This document shows positions 3,833-61,647 of a stretch of 64,000 nucleotides of DNA, in pieces. Made by a program: the position numbers and the translations under genes. Within the stretch, counting starts at the first letter, position 1; the number at the start of each line of letters is the position of its first letter. This DNA comes from Syntrophales bacterium (GTDB lineage Bacteria; Desulfobacterota; Syntrophia; Syntrophales; UBA2210), in contig CAXXKT010000001.1 of NCBI GenBank assembly GCA_963662405.2, forward strand, positions 2,208,001 through 2,272,000, read 5' to 3'. Below the pieces are notes generated by a model, which was given only the letters and a program-made list of their open reading frames with translations, made no database searches and was not told the origin of the DNA.

Positions 3833-3905
3833 GTTTAATCACTTCCGACGCACGGGATTACCTCCTTAATGTTTTTCCCGTGAATTGAAACGTAAGGAAG
3901 TGAAA

Positions 3906-4937
3906 ATGGGAACAACCATAAAACAAGGCACAGGTTTCAGGAATTTCAAATCCGGACGATTTGCTGGCGAATCCGGTACGCAGCCGAAACTACTCGATCG
4001 CCTGCGTCTTGCCATGCGCTCGCGGCATTACAGCAGACGAACGGAGCAGACTTACAGCTATTGGGTTAAGAAGTACATATATTTCCATAATGTGAGACAT
4101 CCCGATGAGATGGGGGAGAAAGAGATCAATGCGTTTCTGACCCACCTGGCGGTAGAGGAAAGGGTGAATGCTTCCACACAGAATCAGGCCCTGTGCGCGC
4201 TTCTGTTCCTTTATCGTCACGTTATTGGCCGCGAGATTGGCGATCTCGGTGATGTCATTCGGGCGAAAAAACCGGTTCGCCTGCCCGTTGTCATGACACG
4301 CGATGAAGTAAAAGCGGTGTTGGAAAACCTGACGGGAGACAAATGGTTGATAGTATGTCTCATGTACGGTGCGGGGCTGAGATTGATGGAATGTCTTCGT
4401 CTGAGGGTGCAGGATATTGATTTTCATTCAAACCAAATTACGGTCCGTGATGGCAAAGGAAATAAAGATCGTGTTACGATGTTTCCAGCTTCGGTGAAAA
4501 AGCCTCTTGCCGAACACCTGAACAACATTAAAACAGTTCATGATTCAGATATTGCCAATGGTTTTGGCCGAGTTGTGATGCCCGATGCCCTAGCCCGTAA
4601 ATACCCGAATGCGTCGAAAGAATGGCGTTGGCAGTGGCTATTCCCTCAAGGCAATTTATGGCACAACCAGCAAACCGGAGAACGAGGCCGACATCATATT
4701 CATGAATCTATTGTTCAAAAAACAGTAAAAGATGCCGTTACAAAAGCAGGGCTGGTGAAAAGGGCGACATGCCATACGTTCAGACACTCATTTGCTACGC
4801 ACCTGCTTGAAGACGGTTATGATATACGGACGGTTCAGGAACTTCTTGGACACAAGGATTTGAAAACAACGATGATCTATACCCATGTGCTCAATAAAGG
4901 GCTCGCAGCGGTCAGAAGCCCTGCCGACAACCTTTAG
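3906..4937 (+). CDS. intI: Integron integrase
   Basis: Tyrosine recombinase motifs ([23 protein letters not shown]...TMIYTH), N-terminal [14 protein letters not shown], and the IntI-specific insertion [24 protein letters not shown]; attC array downstream. Confidence 0.97.
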
Positions 4938-6167: not shown

Positions 6168-6366
6168 ACACAAACCCAGGGCAACTTCCCACTTATAAAT
6201 CCCTGTTACCTGTCCAAAGAAACCGGACCACCTCTTAGATCTGCATAACATCCCAACCGAGTGAAAGAAAAATGGGATGATAACGATTGAATGTTCAGTG
6301 ACTATGTCTAAAATGTAAGCTGTTTTCGAGGGGTGTTATGCCGCACTTTTTGCGGTGTTTGCGATA

Positions 6367-6397
6367 TTATACGAGATCCGTATAAACATTGTTCAGG
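6367..6397 (+). other. Probable attI site (crossover G|TT at 6391)
   Basis: TATAAAC-ATT-GTTCAGG precedes the first cassette; no attC stem upstream; palindrome TTATACGAGATCCGTATAA adjacent. Confidence 0.6.
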
Positions 6398-6530
6398 GGG
6401 CGCTCCACGATAAGACCGCTCCACACCCCCTGAACATGCGGCGGCTGCCCTGAGCTGGTTCGCTCGGCGCGCAGCGCCTCCCGAACCAGCGGATGGACTT
6501 GTCCCCTGCGGGGCAGGTCATCCGCCGCAT
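6391..6530 (+). repeat. 140-bp ORF-less mini-cassette, copy 1 (at attI)
   Basis: GTTCAGGGGG...CCCCCTGAAC-ATGCGGCGG...CCGCCGCAT|GTT; 1 nt different from copy 3. Confidence 0.95.
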
Positions 6531-6533
6531 GTT

Positions 6534-7562
6534 GTGTGCCATATTAATATTTTGGAGTTTACTGTGGGGCAATTAGAAAATTATTCAGATTTACAAGAAA
6601 AAAATAAGCAATTTTCTCGTAAACAGGAATTTTCAATCATTGATACTATAGAAGAATTTGATAAGTGGTATAAAACTCTTAAGGAGAGTTCTTCGAAAGT
6701 ATCTTCAAAATCAAAAATCTCATCGGTAAATACAAATAAAATGTACAGAGGGATGAGTGAGTCAAAATACAAATTACTTACTTCTTCTCAAAGATTTTGG
6801 ATTTTAAATGAACTGGAACAATGGTGGCGACCCAAAAGATATTTAGAATTTATAGAAACTTTCGTTGATAACGCACGGAAAAAGTTATTATTCAATAAAG
6901 TGTTCGAATACTACAAACTGAAGCCCAACCAAAGAGATTTCCCAATATTAAGTATACTTCAGCATTATGGTGCACCGACTCCACTAATGGATTGGAGTTA
7001 TAATGTAGATGTAGCTCTGTATTTTGCCACTGAAGGGGTAAAGCCTTCTTCATCCAAAGATATAGAACTTTATTTTTCGATTTACGAAATAGATAAAAAC
7101 AAACAAATTAAGAATGAATTTAACAACTTATTAAATTGGCATAAGGGCAGCTTTCCAAAAATAAGTTCATTTTTTGGTTGGGAAGATAATCAAAATTCAA
7201 TTTTTTATATATCAGATTTTGAGGACAAACCTGAAAATCCACGGAGCTTTGTTGATGAAAGACCTATAACGACCTTCTATAATCAGAATATTATACCTCA
7301 AGAAGGGCTTTTTATTTTCAACCCTTTTCCTAAGAAGCCTTTAGAGAATTGTTTTAATACTGATCATGACGCAGATGGAAATAACTTGGATTTAATACCT
7401 TTTAGTTGTTTTAATATTAATAAAGACTTATCTGAATATATAAGACGAAAAATTAAACTCAAAGGTATTGATAACGCATTTATTTATCCTGATTTGAGAG
7501 TTTATTGTAATGGATTGATCGAAGAATTTTTAGACCAAGCAGCCGAGGCACACAACAAATAA
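6534..7562 (+). CDS. FRG-domain protein (cassette; start may be the GTG at 6562)
   Basis: MYRG...LQHYGAPTPLMDWSYNVDVALYFA...QEGLF. Confidence 0.85.
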   Translation: MCHINILEFTVGQLENYSDLQEKNKQFSRKQEFSIIDTIEEFDKWYKTLKESSSKVSSKSKISSVNTNKMYRGMSESKYKLLTSSQRFWILNELEQWWRPKRYLEFIETFVDNARKKLLFNKVFEYYKLKPNQRDFPILSILQHYGAPTPLMDWSYNVDVALYFATEGVKPSSSKDIELYFSIYEIDKNKQIKNEFNNLLNWHKGSFPKISSFFGWEDNQNSIFYISDFEDKPENPRSFVDERPITTFYNQNIIPQEGLFIFNPFPKKPLENCFNTDHDADGNNLDLIPFSCFNINKDLSEYIRRKIKLKGIDNAFIYPDLRVYCNGLIEEFLDQAAEAHNK

Positions 7563-8393: not shown

Positions 8394-8448
8394 AAAACAT
8401 CGAACAAATTAATCCAGCGGACGGCTTACAGCCGCCGCTGATCATTGC

Positions 8449-8588
8449 GTTCAGGGGGCGCTCCGCGATAAGACCGCTCCACACCCCCTGAACATGCGGC
8501 GGCTGCCCTGAGCTGGTTCGCTCGGCGCGCAGCGCCTCCCGAACCAGCGGATGGACTTGTCCCCTGCGGGGGAGGTCATCCGCCGCAT
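8449..8588 (+). repeat. 140-bp ORF-less mini-cassette, copy 2
   Basis: Near-identical to copies 1 and 3; begins at the GTT of the HNH cassette attC. Confidence 0.95.
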
Positions 8589-8632
8589 GTTCGGCTACAA
8601 AAAGGAGGAATGATAAAAAGTCTTCATGAGCT

Positions 8633-8790
8633 GTGAATTGGGATACACTGTTTGAAACTTTATAGTTTTGGGCAGCAAGGCTACTGTTCGACATGTTTAC
8701 TGGTCTTCGAGACCGCAAAGGAGAATGAAGAGCTGTAGCCGCAACATTCAATGATCTTCGAGATCGAATAGGAGATTGGGACCAATTCAC
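8633..8790 (+). ncRNA. Putative bridge/seek RNA of the IS110 element
   Basis: Closing stem GTGAATTGG/CCAATTCAC; two TTCGA-capped hairpins flanked by segments matching the target (AAAGGAG) and donor (CATTC, ATAGGAG). Confidence 0.7.
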
Positions 8791-8826
8791 CTGACAGGCG
8801 CTGTCCAAGATGTGAGGAGGCGTTCT

Positions 8827-9939
8827 ATGAAGATGAGTATCGGGGTTGACCTTCACAAGACGCAGTTTACCGTTTGTTGTTTGAGTGAAGATCGGAGTGT
8901 TCAGGAGTCGGGCATCTACCCGACGACTGATCGAGGTTACCGGGCATTTATCATGAAGGTGTCCAACTGGAATGAGGGCGGTTACGAGGTCACGGCAGCG
9001 GTGGAATCAACAGGGAACACCCGACACTTTCGCAACCGGTTTTTGAAGGCGGGGATTGAGGTCAAGATAGTGAACACCTTGAAATTCAAGGTTGTAAATG
9101 AGTCAGTAAAAAAGACTGACAAGCATGATTCCCGCACATTGGCTGAGTTTCTTGAGAAAGATATGCTTCCCGAGTCCATTCTTTGTTCGCAGGAAAGCGA
9201 GGACATTCGAAGGCTTCTCAAGTCACGTTCTGTTCTGGTGAAAGCTTTGGTATCCTTGAAAAACCAGATACACGGTTTATTGCTTGGATATGGGATAGAG
9301 AGTCGGCGGGGACAGCTGCAGAGCAAAAAAGAAAGGCAGCGAATCCTTGACGGTCTCGCGGACCATAGGAGTTACGGAAACGCTGCCCGAGCGGTAAAAC
9401 CGCTTCTTGGTACAATAGACCAAATTGCATCCGAGGTCAAAGGACTTGAGCGCGTATTATCTGATCTTGTTTCTGAAGACGAGGATGTTGCTCTGTTGCA
9501 AACGATTCCTGGCGTTGGAATAATAACAGCAGCGACGATTCGGGCTTATACCGATGACATCAACCGATATGAGAGCGCCAAGCAGTATGCTGCTCATGCC
9601 GGTTTGGTACCATGGGTTCAAAACTCCAACAAGACCATTCGCCATGGTCATATTACCAAGCGAGGCCCCGTGGAACTGAGGACGGCTTTTGTGCAAATGG
9701 TAATGGGGATGCTACGGCTTCGGAATAAAACCGATGGATATTGGCTTATGTACAAATACAAAGCCATGAAAGAGAACAAGGGAACCGGGAAGAGCGTAAT
9801 AGCGACGGCGCGAAAGATGAGCACTATTGTATATGCCATCTTGAAGAAGGGGGAGCCGTTTGATCCATCGAAAATGCTGCCAGACCCGAAATATGTAGAG
9901 ATGAGTAAGGTTGCGAGGTGTTATGCTTTGGCCGTTTAA
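8827..9939 (+). CDS. IS110-family DEDD recombinase/transposase
   Basis: IGVDLHK, VEST, KTDKHDS, TIPGVG, GLVP..QNS, GHITKRG. Confidence 0.95.
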   Translation: MKMSIGVDLHKTQFTVCCLSEDRSVQESGIYPTTDRGYRAFIMKVSNWNEGGYEVTAAVESTGNTRHFRNRFLKAGIEVKIVNTLKFKVVNESVKKTDKHDSRTLAEFLEKDMLPESILCSQESEDIRRLLKSRSVLVKALVSLKNQIHGLLLGYGIESRRGQLQSKKERQRILDGLADHRSYGNAARAVKPLLGTIDQIASEVKGLERVLSDLVSEDEDVALLQTIPGVGIITAATIRAYTDDINRYESAKQYAAHAGLVPWVQNSNKTIRHGHITKRGPVELRTAFVQMVMGMLRLRNKTDGYWLMYKYKAMKENKGTGKSVIATARKMSTIVYAILKKGEPFDPSKMLPDPKYVEMSKVARCYALAV

Positions 9940-10002: not shown

Positions 10003-10677
10003 ATGACAATAAGCGATGCACTAATGATAATAGCCGTTTTAGCTGCTCCTTTCCTAGCGGTTTTTGCACAAAGACAAATTGATTTATGGCGGGAACAAAG
10101 ACAAAGAAAATTATGGGTTTTTAAAACACTTATGGCCACACGTGGTCGAACTTTGTCTCCAGAGTATGTACAAGCTCTAAACATGATAGAACTTGAATTC
10201 CAAAAATCTTCTGAGAAACCTATCCGCGATGCATGGAAAGAGTACCATGATCATCTAAACTCTTATCCTCGTGAAGGTGAAAATCAGAAGGAGAGAGCTG
10301 CTGTGTGGGATGAAGCGTTGGCAAAACTGCTTGCTAATCTTCTTATTAAGATGAGTAAGGCTTTCTCATATGAGTTTGACGTAGTACAAATAAAGAAAGG
10401 GGCTTATTCACCTAAAGGTCATGCAACCACAGAAATCGAACTTCAGTTACTTAGGCGTTTTGCACTAGAATGGCTTGCTGGTGAAAGGAAGGTGTCTGTT
10501 TCAATAGTGCCTAAAGACGATGAGTCCGCTAAACAAGGTCAAGTATTTATGGCTGGTTTATCGGGCATTATCGAAGGCCAAAAACAAATAAAAGTTGAAT
10601 TGGTTTCTCAAATGGATGGTGATGACAAGCCGAACAATACTAATTCAGCCGACGCAAAAAGCCGCGCGGCTGATTAG
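10003..10677 (+). CDS. Hypothetical cassette protein with an N-terminal TM helix
   Basis: RBS AGGAG; hydrophobic N-terminus; FKTLMATR...VQALNMIELEF; stop lies inside attC. Confidence 0.8.
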   Translation: MTISDALMIIAVLAAPFLAVFAQRQIDLWREQRQRKLWVFKTLMATRGRTLSPEYVQALNMIELEFQKSSEKPIRDAWKEYHDHLNSYPREGENQKERAAVWDEALAKLLANLLIKMSKAFSYEFDVVQIKKGAYSPKGHATTEIELQLLRRFALEWLAGERKVSVSIVPKDDESAKQGQVFMAGLSGIIEGQKQIKVELVSQMDGDDKPNNTNSADAKSRAAD

Positions 10678-10681
10678 TGCC

Positions 10682-10821
10682 GTTCAGGGGGCGCTCCGCG
10701 ATAAGACCGCTCCACACCCCCTGAACATGCGGCGGCTGCCCTGAGCTGGTTCGCTCGGCGCGCAGCGCCTCCCGAACCAGCGGATGGACTTGTCCCCTGC
10801 GGGGCAGGTCATCCGCCGCAT
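10682..10821 (+). repeat. 140-bp ORF-less mini-cassette, copy 3
   Basis: Begins at an attC GTT and is followed by GTTATAGC. Confidence 0.95.
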
Positions 10822-10846
10822 GTTATAGCAATTTAATGATAAAAAT

Positions 10847-12157: not shown

Positions 12158-12487
12158 ATGAAGTGGATACTTTTATCAATTGCTATATTGTCAGAACTTG
12201 GTGGTTCAACATGTATGAAGTTATCAAATGGATTCACCAATATTCCAGCTTCAATTATGACATTTGTCTTTTGGGCTATCTCATTTAGTATTTTCATATT
12301 TGCGCTTAAACACTTTGACTTAAGCTTTATTTATGCTCTTTGGGCCGGCGTTGGAATTTTATTGGTATCAGTAATTGGTATGACCTATTTCAAAGAACCA
12401 GTAAACGTAATGAAGGTTATTTCAATTCTTATCATTGTTGTAGGTGTTGTGATGCTCAACTTGAGCGAAATTTTAACAAATCAATAG
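12158..12487 (+). CDS. SMR-family small multidrug efflux protein (cassette)
   Basis: 109 aa, four TM segments, W..L.IAI.SE, KLSNGF, YALWAGVG. Confidence 0.92.
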   Translation: MKWILLSIAILSELGGSTCMKLSNGFTNIPASIMTFVFWAISFSIFIFALKHFDLSFIYALWAGVGILLVSVIGMTYFKEPVNVMKVISILIIVVGVVMLNLSEILTNQ

Positions 12488-13977: not shown

Positions 13978-14054
13978 TAAAAGCCCAACAAAATTTTCAA
14001 CCCGCCTTTCCCCGCAGCTCGTTCCTCGCTCTGGGAAAAGCGGGTTAAACAGGC

Positions 14055-14194
14055 GTTCAGGGGACGCTCCGCGATGAGATCGCTCCACGCCCCCTGAACA
14101 TGCGGCGGCTGCCCTGAGCTGGTTCGCTCGGCGCACAGCGCCTCCCGAACCAGCGGATGGACTTGTCCCCTGCGGGGCAGGTCATCCGCCGCAT
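14055..14194 (+). repeat. 140-bp ORF-less mini-cassette, copy 4
   Basis: Five substitutions relative to copy 3. Confidence 0.95.
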
Positions 14195-14913
14195 GTTAGG
14201 GCTTAAGAAAAAATGTCACAATTATCCTACGCACGAATAATGCTGGAGCAAATGGGGATACCATTTGAGGATATTCCAACATCAGATGAAAAAATGAAAA
14301 AGGAGGCGGATTTTCTAGCAAGTTTTGGTGATTCCAGAGTGCTTATCGAAGAAAAACTAAAAGAGGACGATCTGAGCTATCTTTCAGTTAGAGGACAGGA
14401 ATTAGAGGCTGGAGGAATCCATGAGCATTCTGTTCCACTGACACGAGATGAGACTATTTCGGGCATAATAAGGCATGCTGCGAAACAACTCAAGTCCTCA
14501 TCAGACAAGCCACATGATTTTCGATTATTGTGGTTTACTGCAACCGGCGTAGCAGCCGAGGCCAAAAGTGAACAGTTCATGGCAACACTTTATGGCCGAA
14601 CAAATATCATAGAGCGCGGCGCTAATGGCTACAAAAGGTGTTACTATTTCCGATATAGTGACTTTTATCGACGTTCAGCAATAATAGATGGTGCAGTAGC
14701 TGCATTCGTGGAGGATGCTTCCATTACTTTGAAACTCTGCTTGAATTCTTTATCCCCGAGATATTTAAACTTAAAACACTCAAGTGTTGTTAAACCTTTC
14801 AGGACTGCTGTTGAAGATCCCTTGGAACTTGAAACCAGAGGGAGTGCTTTTATATTAGATAACGATATTGATCGAAAAGACGAACAGAAACTGCTTGAGT
14901 ATCTAAAAAATAA

Positions 14914-15649
14914 GGGTCTTGACTAGAACAGCACACGGAAATATGTTAAGAGTCTAGTCATGTCAATAAGTAACAAGTATGTAAAAAATTCCAAAATTTC
15001 AGAGGCAAAATTTAGAGAGATCGTGAAGTATTTTGCCTTCGATTTGGATGCTCAAACCATCGCTCTTTTAACAAAACTCAATAGAAATACGGTGAATCGA
15101 TATCTGTCTTTGATTCGTCAACGTATAGCTGATCTGTGCGAAGAAGAATCACCATTTCAGGGTGAAATCGAGGTTGACGAATCATATTTCGGTGCAAAAC
15201 GTATCAAAGGGAAACGAGGCCGTGGGGCCGGGAGAAAAACCCCTGTATTCGGTATCCTGCAACGAAAAGGCAGTGTCTATACCGAAATCGTTCCCGATTG
15301 CGCCAGGAAGACTCTCCAGGCCATTATCAGGGGCAAAGTTGAACCGAATAGTGTCATACATTCAGATAGTTGGAGAGGCTATGATGGTTTGGTTGACTTG
15401 GGATACAAAAAGCATTACCGTGTTCATCACGGAGCCAATGAATTTGCCAGGGGGAAAAGCCACATCAATGGCATTGAATCCTTCTGGTCATTCGCAAAAC
15501 GGAGGCTGATGAAGTTCCATGGTATTCCACAATCAACCTTTTACCTGCATCTCAAGGAATGTGAGTTCCGGTTCAACAACCGTAACACCGATATCTATAA
15601 ATTGTTGTTAAAGAACTTCAAAAATAAACCGCTGTTCTAGTCAAGACCC
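14914..15649 (+). mobile_element. IS1595-family element, copy 1 (736 bp)
   Basis: 19-bp perfect IRs GGGTCTTGACTAGAACAGC; 8-bp TSD AAAAATAA. Confidence 0.95.
14960..15640 (+). CDS. IS1595-family transposase
   Basis: EVDESYFG, HSDSWRGY, HINGIESFWS, HLKECEFRFN. Confidence 0.95.
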   Translation: MSISNKYVKNSKISEAKFREIVKYFAFDLDAQTIALLTKLNRNTVNRYLSLIRQRIADLCEEESPFQGEIEVDESYFGAKRIKGKRGRGAGRKTPVFGILQRKGSVYTEIVPDCARKTLQAIIRGKVEPNSVIHSDSWRGYDGLVDLGYKKHYRVHHGANEFARGKSHINGIESFWSFAKRRLMKFHGIPQSTFYLHLKECEFRFNNRNTDIYKLLLKNFKNKPLF

Positions 15650-15818: not shown

Positions 15819-16085
15819 CTACGATAGATTTCTGTAAATATCTTTTCGGTGGCCAATTTTGACGACCAAAATGACAAGGATATCATCTTGGATTTCATAA
15901 ACGATCCGATAATCTCCAACCCGAACTTTATGAAAAGGGTTGTTTCCCTTCATTTTTGTCGTTTCGGGGCTTGGAAGATTTTCTGCAAAGCTATCAATCT
16001 TCTCAACTATTCGCACTCTGTCAACTTTTGGAATCTTCTTAAGGGTTTTCGCAGCGGAATTCTTAATCTCAATTCGGTAGCTCAA
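15819..16085 (-). CDS. RelE/ParE-family toxin (inverted TA cassette)
   Basis: KVRVGDYRIVYEI.D..LVILVVKIGHRKDIY. Confidence 0.92.
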   Translation of the reverse strand: MSYRIEIKNSAAKTLKKIPKVDRVRIVEKIDSFAENLPSPETTKMKGNNPFHKVRVGDYRIVYEIQDDILVILVVKIGHRKDIYRNLS

Positions 16086-16333
16086 AGTTCAAGCTCCTTT
16101 TTAAACTCCTCCCAAGGTATTGGGTCGCCGGGTTCATTTTTGGCTTTCCAGGTATCTTCAATATCAATCTGTTCTTCTAACTCTTGTAACAATTTGAGTT
16201 CTTTTATTGATACTATTGCAGCTAATGGTTCGCCACGGCGTGTCAGAACAAATGATTCATTTCCAAAGGCTACTCGATTTAAAATATTAGAGAATTTTTT
16301 TCTGGCATCTGCGGTCGTTATTTTGTTAAGCAT
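16082..16333 (-). CDS. Phd/YefM-family antitoxin
   Basis: TADARKKFSNILNRV...VLTRRGEPLAAIVS; overlaps the toxin start. Confidence 0.9.
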   Translation of the reverse strand: MLNKITTADARKKFSNILNRVAFGNESFVLTRRGEPLAAIVSIKELKLLQELEEQIDIEDTWKAKNEPGDPIPWEEFKKELEL

Positions 16334-16552
16334 AACTTTGCTCCAATTGTTTGTTTTGTACACCAAGTACAGATGGTACCACATTCGATCGGTTTGTCAA
16401 CAAATTCTATTTAATATAATAATAATCGGTTATAACATCACCATTCACAAAGGACTCGCAGGGGCGGACCGCCTTAGTTTTAGCATATTTTAGTGTTGAA
16501 CTCTCATTTGCGAAGTCCGATAACCCTGCTCGCCTGTGATGGTGGGCGTTAA

Positions 16553-17072: not shown

Positions 17073-17211
17073 GTTCAGGGGACGCTCCGCGATAAGACCG
17101 TTCACGCCCCCTGAACATGCGGCGGCTGCCCTGAGCTGGTTCGGTTGGCGCGTAGCGCCTCCCGAACCAGCGGATTGACTTGTTCCTTTTGGGGTAGGTC
17201 ATCCGCCGCAT
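17073..17211 (+). repeat. ORF-less mini-cassette, copy 5 (139 bp)
   Basis: About a dozen changes relative to copy 3; outer arms intact. Confidence 0.93.
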
Positions 17212-17235
17212 GTTCAGGGTTACAAGGAGAGAATA

Positions 17236-17676
17236 ATGAAAATTTCAAGAGTTACAATACTAACGCTTGGCGTAGCCGATTTGGGTAAAGCGACAGAATT
17301 TTATGAGGCTGTACTTGGCATCCCTCCAAACAAATCTTTTGATGGAATCACTTTCATTGAGCTTCCAGGAACATGGATTGCTCTTTATCCTCTTGAAAAA
17401 CTTGCAGAAGATATTTCACCTGATGTTTCTGTTACTCGCAATGGGTTTAGTGGAGTTACGCTTGCCCACAACGCCGGAAGCAAGGAGGAGGTTTTAGAAA
17501 TTGTGCGGCGCGCGGAGTCAGCAGGTGCTAGGATTGTTAAGGAGCCTAAAGATACTGGATGGGGTGGTTTCAGTGGATACTTTGCCGACATTGATGGCTA
17601 TTACTGGGAGGTAGCTTGGGGACCAATGTTTGAGTTCACAGAAAATGGCGAAATGACATTTAAAAGAAAACCATAA
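17236..17676 (+). CDS. VOC/glyoxalase-family protein (cassette)
   Basis: LTLGVADL.KA.EFY, TLAHN, WGGFSGYFADIDGYYWEVAW. Confidence 0.92.
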   Translation: MKISRVTILTLGVADLGKATEFYEAVLGIPPNKSFDGITFIELPGTWIALYPLEKLAEDISPDVSVTRNGFSGVTLAHNAGSKEEVLEIVRRAESAGARIVKEPKDTGWGGFSGYFADIDGYYWEVAWGPMFEFTENGEMTFKRKP

Positions 17677-17771
17677 CAACTGGCTCAACAGCGGACTTGC
17701 CCAAAACGCTTGCGCGTTTTCAGCCAGCCGGTTAGGCGGAGCGTTGGGTCCAGAAGAAGAGGAATACAGAC

Positions 17772-19082: not shown

Positions 19083-19337
19083 ATGAGAGTCATAAATTTT
19101 AGTGAAGCAAGAAATAAACTGAAAGCAATATTAGATCAAGTTAACGATGATGCTGACTACACCGTAATTACGCGAAGAGACGCTGAAGACGCAGTAGTAA
19201 TGTCCTTGGATACTTTCAACAGTTATCTTGAAACATTTCATCTTTTAAAATCTCCTGCCAACGCTGAGCATCTTGCGAAATCTATCGCTCAATATAAAAA
19301 TGGTGAAGCAACTGAAAGAGAAATGATCAATGAATAA
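19083..19337 (+). CDS. yefM: YefM antitoxin
   Basis: FSEARNKLKAILDQV..D...ITRR...VVMSL...ETFHLLKSPANA.HL. Confidence 0.93.
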   Translation: MRVINFSEARNKLKAILDQVNDDADYTVITRRDAEDAVVMSLDTFNSYLETFHLLKSPANAEHLAKSIAQYKNGEATEREMINE

Positions 19338-19593
19338 AGGACTCGCGTGGACTGATGAAGCCTGGAAAGACTACATCTATTGGCAAACTCAAGACAAAAA
19401 AACATTCACGCGTATCAATAGGCTCCTTGATGACATTAAACGAAATAACCCATTTAAAGGTATCGGAAAACCGGAACCTCTAAAAGAAAACCTGAGCGGA
19501 TTGTGGTCCAGAAGGATTGATGATACAAATCGTTTAGTCTCTGCAGTCGATGAAGTATATATTACCGTTATTTCTTGTAGATATCATTATTAA
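19330..19593 (+). CDS. yoeB: YoeB/Txe toxin
   Basis: AWKDYIYWQTQDKK, GIGKPEPLK, WSRRI, C-terminal RYHY. Confidence 0.95.
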   Translation: MNKGLAWTDEAWKDYIYWQTQDKKTFTRINRLLDDIKRNNPFKGIGKPEPLKENLSGLWSRRIDDTNRLVSAVDEVYITVISCRYHY

Positions 19594-22466: not shown

Positions 22467-22607
22467 GTTCAGCGGACGCTCCGCGATAAGACCGCTCCAC
22501 GCCCCCTGAACATGCGGCGGCTGTCCTGAGCTGGTTCTCTCGGCGCGCAGCGCCTCCCGAACCAGCGGATGGACGTGTTCCCTGCGGGGTAAGGTCATCC
22601 GCCGCAT
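22467..22607 (+). repeat. ORF-less mini-cassette, copy 6 (terminal GTT lost)
   Basis: About nine changes relative to copy 3; ends CCGCCGCATG|AAATCC. Confidence 0.93.
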
Positions 22608-22701
22608 GAAATCCTTCCAAGATAAAGAGGTTGAGAAAATATTCGGCAGGCAAATTTCAAAAAAGTTGCCGCAGGATATTCAGCGCAGGGCTCAAGGCTA
22701 A
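22606..22701 (+). pseudogene. HigB-type toxin N-terminal remnant
   Basis: Translates to MKSFQDKEVEKIFGRQISKKLPQDIQRRAQG*, typical of HigB/killer-protein N-termini. Confidence 0.7.
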
Positions 22702-22743: not shown

Positions 22744-22803
22744 GTGCAGGGGGCGCTCCACGATAATCCTGCACCATTGCCCTGAACATGTAGCGGCTTT
22801 CCT
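22744..22803 (+). repeat. Decayed, truncated copy 7 of the mini-cassette
   Basis: GTGCAGGGGGCGCTCCACGATAA...CCCTGAACATGTAGCGGCT. Confidence 0.8.
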
Positions 22804-22810
22804 GCTCCGA

Positions 22811-61516: not shown

Positions 61517-61647
61517 TTTTCCCTGTCTTTCCCCCCTGACTCCCGTTGCGTCGCGGGTTGCTCCTGCCGGTATGGCATACCGTGAAACAATACGAGAAAT
61601 CAATAAGTCAACCCGATACCTGCTTCAGATAACGGGAAATAATATTA

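Follow-up and report, generated by a model that had tools for sequence, protein, structure and literature searches.

A gene-less integron cassette whose cargo appears to be a mirror of its own attC site

Introduction

What does a 140-bp repeat that holds no gene do in an integron, and which of its two incompatible folds matters? The question is raised by the window, a stretch of 64,000 nucleotides from a Syntrophales bacterium, in which an initial annotation singled out a repeat able to fold either as an attC-like site (fold A) or as a branched structure that hides this site (fold B), and took it to be a DNA or RNA conformational switch or a fusion of two nested empty cassettes. On balance, we favor a head-to-head pair of minimal empty cassettes that would be moved by the integrase IntI, with fold A as the active site and a mirror arm matched to it by repair in the hairpin.

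The array and its recurrent unit

The integrase gene heads the array and has the orientation of the cassettes; an IS3-type element, an attI-like site and cassettes up to ~22.6 kb follow. The features are, on the plus strand:

3885-4937: integron integrase IntI, with Pfam phage integrase domains and a TIGR02249 match above cut-off (E 1.7e-141)
6379-6393: putative attI-like site, placed by its position 5′ of the first cassette and by a near-identical flank before other first-position copies
6392-6531: copy 1 of the 140-bp gene-less cassette (TT...G); the R′ of the next cassette matches its own R″ at 7548-7556
8450-8589: copy 2, after attC 8403-8451
10683-10822: copy 3, after attC 10633-10684
14056-14195: copy 4, after attC 13987-14057
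17074-17212: copy 5, 90% identical
22468-22608: copy 6, 93% identical, its right end without the TT of the next R′
22744-22804: decayed head and start of a mirror arm, at the array end

The unit is 140 bp long (139 in copy 5, 141 in copy 6) and makes up 6 of ~24 units in the array by manual count; the whole genome holds 8 full copies and 2 short variants, as well as head or decayed remnants. Every copy begins at a G^TT, which belongs either to attI or to the attC before it (for copy 1, in first array position, to the attI-like site), and 5 of the 6 also end at G^TT. Behind copies 1-4, the first bases of the following cassette match that cassette's own R″, and left and right neighbors differ between copies, as expected of a unit that moves independently. 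All copies viewed share a single orientation, with no inverted insertion among them, and no target duplication was seen at any junction viewed. The R′ of the element matches its inner R″ at 6 of 7 positions (with a G.T on the bottom strand) and its long R″ at 7 of 7. By its borders, the element is to all appearances an integron cassette that moves as one unit between G^TT crossovers.

Could the unit instead be a MITE- or REP-like repeat, moved by one of the transposases in the array (IS110, IS3, IS1595) and targeting att sites by chance? It is multi-copy, palindromic and non-coding, and transposases lie nearby, but every junction falls exactly at G^TT without duplication, the combination of a transposase family's terminal inverted repeats with a target duplication was not found, and the internal attC hallmarks are conserved. 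A copy from a sister family (locus L225, the second copy of family 4, described below) sits inside a glycosyltransferase-like ORF, again exactly at G^TT and without duplication, a clean insertion like those that IntI is reported to make at secondary GWT sites (bioRxiv 10.1101/2022.09.11.507474). We regard a transposase-driven origin as highly improbable.

The transposases of the IS110 and IS1595 families (8776-9939 and 14960-15640) each lie within a cassette, and the IS1595 element has more copies at window position 61641 and at other genome sites. Cassette cargo includes a small multidrug resistance family gene and two toxin-antitoxin pairs (12158-12487, 15819-16384, 19083-19593). Between 3885 and 6167, an IS3-type element separates intI from attI.

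Anatomy of the element

How is so small a cassette built? Its layout is a hairpin H, a mirror attC that is inverted and centrally deleted, a hairpin H′ that is a paralogue of H, and an attC (fold A):

6391-6435, plus strand: head hairpin H, in which the cassette R′ end pairs with the long R″ (AAC at 6433)
6433-6462, plus strand: mirror arm, which forms the outer helix and the P2 helix of fold B
6458-6486, plus strand: hairpin H′, paralogue of H, which hides the inner R″
6480-6537, minus strand: 58-bp attC (fold A), with the bottom strand as the presumed recombinogenic strand

The left side of fold A consists of R″ (6480-6486), a 5-nt spacer (6487-6491) and L″ (6492-6499), with bulges at 6495 and 6502; to the right lie the loop (6507-6509), L′ (6516-6522), an 8-nt spacer (6523-6530) and R′ (6531-6537). 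In fold B, an outer helix pairs 6433-6444 perfectly with 6522-6533 over 12 bp, and an inner pairing of 9 bp (6454-6462 with 6482-6490) covers the inner AAC; a perfect 12-bp inverted repeat was reached in none of 200 shuffles of the unit. This geometry agrees throughout with the initial annotation, which had given the coordinates of both folds, the 58-bp site with its 5-nt and 8-nt spacers, the bulged G at 6495 (+9), the 12-bp and 9-bp pairings, the use of AAC 6433 by the head hairpin and the two CGCTCC motifs of the head loop; the second bulge, at 6502 (+16), is absent from it. In competing for AAC 6433, the head hairpin shows ordinary R′/R″ complementarity, in a cassette whose ends are only ~40 nt apart.

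In a global alignment, 6433-6462 is the reverse complement of 6482-6533 minus the complements of L′ and of L″ and the loop, that is, with two internal deletions; the mirror arm shows two-sided changes at 6436/6530 and 6437/6529. H is 44-45 nt long here vs 29 nt in most homologues, and the short-head H and an inverted H′ are alike at 21 of 29 positions. H resembles H′ in all five families: composition-matched random hairpins scored as well as the H/H′ pair in 25, 2, 0, 21 and 55 of 2000 cases for families 1-5, the element described here being family 1; the scores lack family specificity in families 1 and 5, where the cross score ties, and this was counted against our reading. The best reading of the sequence is that the unit represents a tandem of two minimal empty cassettes, each made of a hairpin and an attC, the first attC body having been inverted and crippled; the fusion of empty cassettes proposed earlier is kept in this reading, as tandem and inverted instead of nested.

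No conserved ORF was found in the 140-bp unit. A coding role was considered for a 45-codon reverse-strand ORF that spans it and was rejected: short-head homologues shift the frame, and several lack its ATG. A group II intron remnant was likewise set aside, no resemblance being seen. A consensus scan found no promoter or terminator inside the unit, except for a minus-strand promoter-like site that spans the attI junction. Neither an excision-circle junction nor an empty-site joint was found in the contigs of 4 runs, one of them without data.

Homologues and the case for fold A

None of 60 close relatives has a homologue, and a phylum sample of 400 yielded 1 full match and 2 short weak ones. A genome-wide pattern returned 41 matches, 38 by chance and 3 real, two of the real ones titled Desulfobacteraceae and Thermodesulfobacteriota; in metagenomes, a second pattern that left the middle of the element free returned 23 matches, all of them real homologues. 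Plasmids gave only 2 short chance matches and phages none, and viral contigs gave 0 matches in one search and 1 chance match in another. The headed homologues among the genome and metagenome matches begin at G^TT, and 6 of 24 headed copies are the first cassette behind attI or an attI-like flank; three of these follow a full intI directly. Three headless family 1 bodies (L062, L063, L075) are fused to a common upstream block of ~110 nt, which contains promoter-like AT-rich sequence, in three different contexts.

The homologues were aligned as 29 distinct rows after removal of 7 duplicates. In this alignment, the bulges at 6495 (+9) and 6502 (+16) vary freely, with 3 and 4 alleles and a minor frequency of 0.48 each, whereas the six L-box positions that flank the first bulge, which the metagenome search pattern left unconstrained, have a minor frequency of ≤0.03. 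Extrahelical bases of attC sites are reported on the R″-L″ arm, the first at +9 and the second 6-8 nt further on (PMC2727003), and the bulges of fold A are placed as in the neighboring attC at 7554. Free bulges between conserved flanking pairs make fold A look like a working site, in support of the attC assignment of the initial annotation. Of the 29 rows, 28 retain the inner AAC and 18 its P2 partner G6458, which is changed in 11, and the loop of fold A reads GNA on the bottom strand. One homologue (L058) has lost the inner AAC, which counts against this reading, and another (L054) has lost the long AAC. No two-sided change was found in this alignment for fold A of family 1, a fold whose right arm is partly fixed by the search pattern.

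The right spacer is the awkward part of fold A: at 8 nt (9 in some homologues), it lies outside the attC norm of 5-6 nt. At 163 integron loci, a GTT occurs 5 or 6 nt past the stem in 38 and 83 cases, and 7 or 8 nt past it in 13 and 8 cases, vs 3 and 2 in shuffles; 3 of the 8 cases with an 8-nt spacer are convincing by eye. The long spacer is not disqualifying, because spacers of 7-8 nt occur in ordinary cassettes nearby in the phylum. Two short variants (L009 and L010) are weak proof that fold A moves alone, because slippage deletions recur: three copies of family 5 (L233, L234, L235) were shortened by slippage at the head/attC-loop repeat and retain no attC at all.

Predicted masking by fold B

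If fold A is the site, can it form? Folding figures here are model energies, in which the DNA multiloop terms are uncertain; with DNA parameters and both R and L boxes paired, fold A has a predicted probability of 1.5e-8 on the bottom strand in context. Alone it reaches 0.06, with the P2 arm 2.6e-5 and with the outer arm 3e-11 to 6e-8 on the same strand, and in the circle it falls to ~1e-12, an energy gap of ~18 kcal/mol. The range across 26 loci is 7e-13 to 2e-3, and nine ordinary attC sites of the array, folded with short flanks, reach 0.007-0.58. Fold B is the predicted ground state, and the relation between the folds is predicted to be masking and not a balanced switch. The folds are mutually exclusive and fold B hides fold A, as first proposed, but a fold A probability of 1e-8 speaks against a switch poised between two states. 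The three-way junction described for fold B, with its L helix closed, is common under RNA parameters alone (0.39-0.72); under DNA parameters it is rare (1e-4 to 4e-3).

The lowest folding class reported for Vibrio attC sites is 1e-5 to 1e-7 (PMC5371416); the equilibrium probability of fold A (1e-8 or lower) is below it, yet the unit is abundant, and this counts against fold A as the site. Could fold B then be the substrate itself, a long atypical attC (6429-6537) with AAC 6433 as R″, a fully paired stem and the L helix as an optional side branch? Its long R box forms readily (0.49 for copy 1, 0.99 in the circle), and the variable right spacer of fold A would no longer matter. Such a site has no extrahelical base and no unpaired spacer, only a 12-bp perfect stem and then symmetric mismatches; a bulge-free stem whose spacer is paired is reported to lower VCR integration 8.5e4-fold (PMC2727003), whereas deletion of the bulges alone has little effect for some attC sites (PMC5027507). 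Against a fold B substrate, the conserved L″/L′ with two free bulges and the conserved inner R″ would go unexplained, a symmetric stem should also insert inverted, of which there is no case among the copies viewed, and L054 does without the long AAC. We consider it improbable that fold B is the substrate; the crossover bases of the sister families, on which this alternative also draws, are taken up next.

Sister families

Four further sequence families share the layout, which makes five in all, with unit sizes of 124-183 bp. A family 2 copy (L070) stands directly after an attI-like site, and the family has matches in 6 of 401 genomes; family 3 has matches in 20 of 401 genomes and none in plasmids, and a first-position copy of it (L061) lies directly 3′ of intI with a near-identical attI-like flank. 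Families 4 (L131) and 5 (L209) come from an architecture scan of 140 integrase loci (1.94 Mb), which gave 27 raw matches vs 13 and 9 in shuffles, of which 2 were kept by eye; one family 3 copy, ending at A^TT, escaped the scan. A single genome carries 6 long copies of family 5. Right spacers measure 8-9, 7-8, 5-6, 7 and 10 nt in families 1-5, and this spread of 6-10 nt across families was counted against fold A. Families 2 and 4 include G^AT cores, which fits the reported tolerance of the second crossover base to change (PMC2811028). In each of the 9 family 2 copies, 5-6 of the 7 positions of the inner R″ agree with the cassette R′, and AAC/ATC switches with GTT/GAT. Monomers, consisting of one hairpin and one attC, occur at L205, L250, L266 and L267 and may have preceded the dimer or arisen from it by deletion; in family 3, complete dimers outnumber monomers by 19 to 3. 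A decayed family 3 half-element lies in the window's own genome (C3:329997-330066).

Family 3 is the most informative. Its 19 complete copies were aligned at 83% identity; the parser, which relied on an inner AAC, could not resolve 4 of 14 extra regions, and all 14 covering loci had this AAC. The L stem of fold A shows 3 two-sided pairs in 15 cells (0 of 500 shuffles), and fold B shows 9 two-sided pairs in 36 cells and is 99% paired; these cells are sequences and not events, and few lineages carry most of the changes. Every change in the right arm is mirrored on both partners. Family 1 has 3 two-sided pairs in fold B (10 cells, some from headless or gap-dependent rows), so that covariation of both folds, the test among homologues proposed in the initial annotation, is seen in the analogous family 3 and for fold B alone in family 1. 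The inner R″ of family 3 is invariant, whereas the 5′ core of H′ has degenerated or been deleted, which favors fold A.

The crossover base points the other way. In family 3, it follows the long R″ and not the inner one (16 AAT/ATT, 2 AAC/GTT and 1 AAC/ATT among 19), which counts against fold A; the crossover base covaries with the long R″ in both families 2 and 3, in favor of a fold B substrate. Yet 10 of 17 A^TT elements of family 3 have G at the left junction, although A^TT circles that pair through fold B would face, at G^TT targets, the reported first-base penalty of 1e3-1e4 (PMC2811028). A G to the left of A^TT elements would seem better tolerated by fold A, which keeps G opposite, than by fold B. 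In the other 7 of the 17 copies, all with the long R″ AAT, an A replaces this G and perfects H; it could reflect repair or insertion at A^TT targets.

Mispairs also bear on whether the unit works as RNA. A structured RNA, or an element of translational control for the downstream cassette, would account for the strong RNA fold and the first-position copies, and attC hairpins are reported to affect downstream translation (PMC8876359). However, the non-Watson-Crick pairs of family 3 are mostly A.C on the top strand, which is G.T on the bottom strand, so they fit the bottom DNA strand (the wobble bias of family 1 is mixed); Rfam gave 0 matches at E up to 1 in a scan of window positions 3000-26000, the unit holds no promoter or terminator consensus beyond the site across the attI junction, and the reverse-strand ORF breaks frame in short-head homologues. 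The CGCTCC motif, once suggested to be anti-Shine-Dalgarno-like, is missing from 14 of 24 headed copies. The RNA role put forward at the outset finds little room here, and we give it a very small chance.

Origin, upkeep and mechanism

How would a pair of empty cassettes with such a site recombine? The substrate of IntI would be the bottom strand in the form of fold A; by pairing with both attC arms, the mirror arm would make fold B the resting, masked state, and recombination would need a fold A that is transient or trapped by the integrase. Two circumstances could help: when the bottom strand is exposed, the 58 nt of fold A would come first, and as long as the DNA is double-stranded the mirror arm could remain bound to the strand opposite it. 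The single-stranded circle is predicted to form a rod with a hairpin at either end (75-82% of it paired in families 2-5); upon excision, this would yield a base-paired dumbbell.

The mirror arm may be a relic of inversion. Recombination of the top strand is reported to invert a cassette (PMC5027507), and an alternative route would be template switching between the inverted ends of attC itself. Complementarity would then be kept mainly by template switching or by mismatch repair in the hairpin, with the element behaving as a selfish passenger of the integron. Template switching is said to homogenize the arms of inverted repeats and to flip their loops without selection, and flipped H′ loops are present at L016 (a family 1 homologue) and L248. 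Inverted repeats also stay matched through template switching, so the matching does not by itself speak for or against an adaptive value of masking.

The same anatomy and an active fold A would be expected if the mirror arm were under selection as a device that sets the timing of recombination, through damped excision, protection of the circle or nucleation of a cruciform beside attC on the leading-strand template. By GC skew, the bottom strand of the array is the leading-strand template, as is reported to be usual for chromosomal integrons (bioRxiv 10.1101/2023.08.31.555669); there folding depends on extrusion, and for this reason cruciform behavior matters. Selected control gains from the pairing in family 3, which mirrors every change in fold A, from the two-sided changes in family 1, from a layout common to five families and from the excess of family 3 dimers over monomers although slippage between H and H′ can delete the arm. 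It loses from the gap of 18 kcal/mol in the circle, which leaves no predicted balance of two states, and from the homogenizing and flipping that template switching accomplishes without selection, such flips being present here. Fold B probably forms in vivo, and an adaptive switch is possible; selected control of this kind strikes us as unlikely. Equally doubtful is a bolder extension of the pair of empty cassettes, in which these would be selfish dumbbell mini-elements whose mirror arm is re-templated in each cycle and gates or boosts recombination, their structure recording the fold-back copying behind the acquisition of attC by cassettes.

Relation to known elements

Gene-less cassettes of Vibrio, Treponema and Xanthomonas resemble the element in that they lack an ORF, have their own attC and often reach many paralogous copies per array; selfish or regulatory roles have been proposed for them (PMC1382264, PMC8876359). 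Those tested in Vibrionaceae differ: they measure 491-666 bp, of which 335-515 bp is cargo, and they often carry promoters (bioRxiv 10.1101/2023.11.21.568050), whereas the elements described here measure 124-183 bp and their whole cargo is a mirror of their own attC and two hairpins. A competing fold that hides a binding box and lowers recombination is reported for low-pfold VCRs and for the straight vs kinked attC aadA7 (PMC5371416, PMC6393395); there the competing fold arises within attC, whereas here its source is an antisense arm that lies apart, upstream of the site, and covaries with it. Insertion at GWT, as in SALIN and attG, has its likeness in L225, with the difference that the inserted unit is gene-less and that the event was seen once, in a sister family. 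Hairpin-capped products are reportedly abortive for fork template switching. The predicted circle is akin to hairpin-capped dumbbell DNA, which for IntI is described as an abortive product of second-strand exchange (PMC3458562); the form proposed here, read from sequence, differs in persisting as a mobile cassette. In the integron literature covered, we found no description of a cassette that carries its own attC in antisense as cargo, though examples annotated in surveys of arrays may have been overlooked. These sources do describe multi-copy cassettes without genes, and attC sites with competing folds; the self-complementary architecture is apparently undescribed in them.

If our reading is right, integrons host minimal selfish elements of their own, which account for roughly one unit in four here and can also land inside genes. 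They would serve as test cases for the masking that an attC tolerates and for kinetic vs equilibrium folding of recombination sites. They possibly inform the birth of cassettes; fold-back copying, if true, would be a handle on cassette genesis. Software for finding attC sites that expects 5-6-nt spacers and a gene would miss or miscount them.

Other features of the array

The minus-strand site at the attI junction (6366-6395) is sigma-70-like, with 10 of 12 consensus positions, and is directed away from the array; the opening bases of the element supply the rest of its -35 hexamer, and, on this sequence match, insertion in first position may create an outward promoter antisense to IS3 and intI. 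The unit behind copy 5 begins like an element head (17212-17225) and mismatches the R″ of the glyoxalase cassette (17672-17680), possibly the trace of a lost tandem copy. Between 22606 and 22804, the end of copy 6, without TT, is followed by a short toxin-like ORF fragment, which by eye we take to be HigB-like, and then by the decayed element head. A second, split intI lies elsewhere in the genome (C1:30608-31649), and its own array carries one full element and one truncated head.
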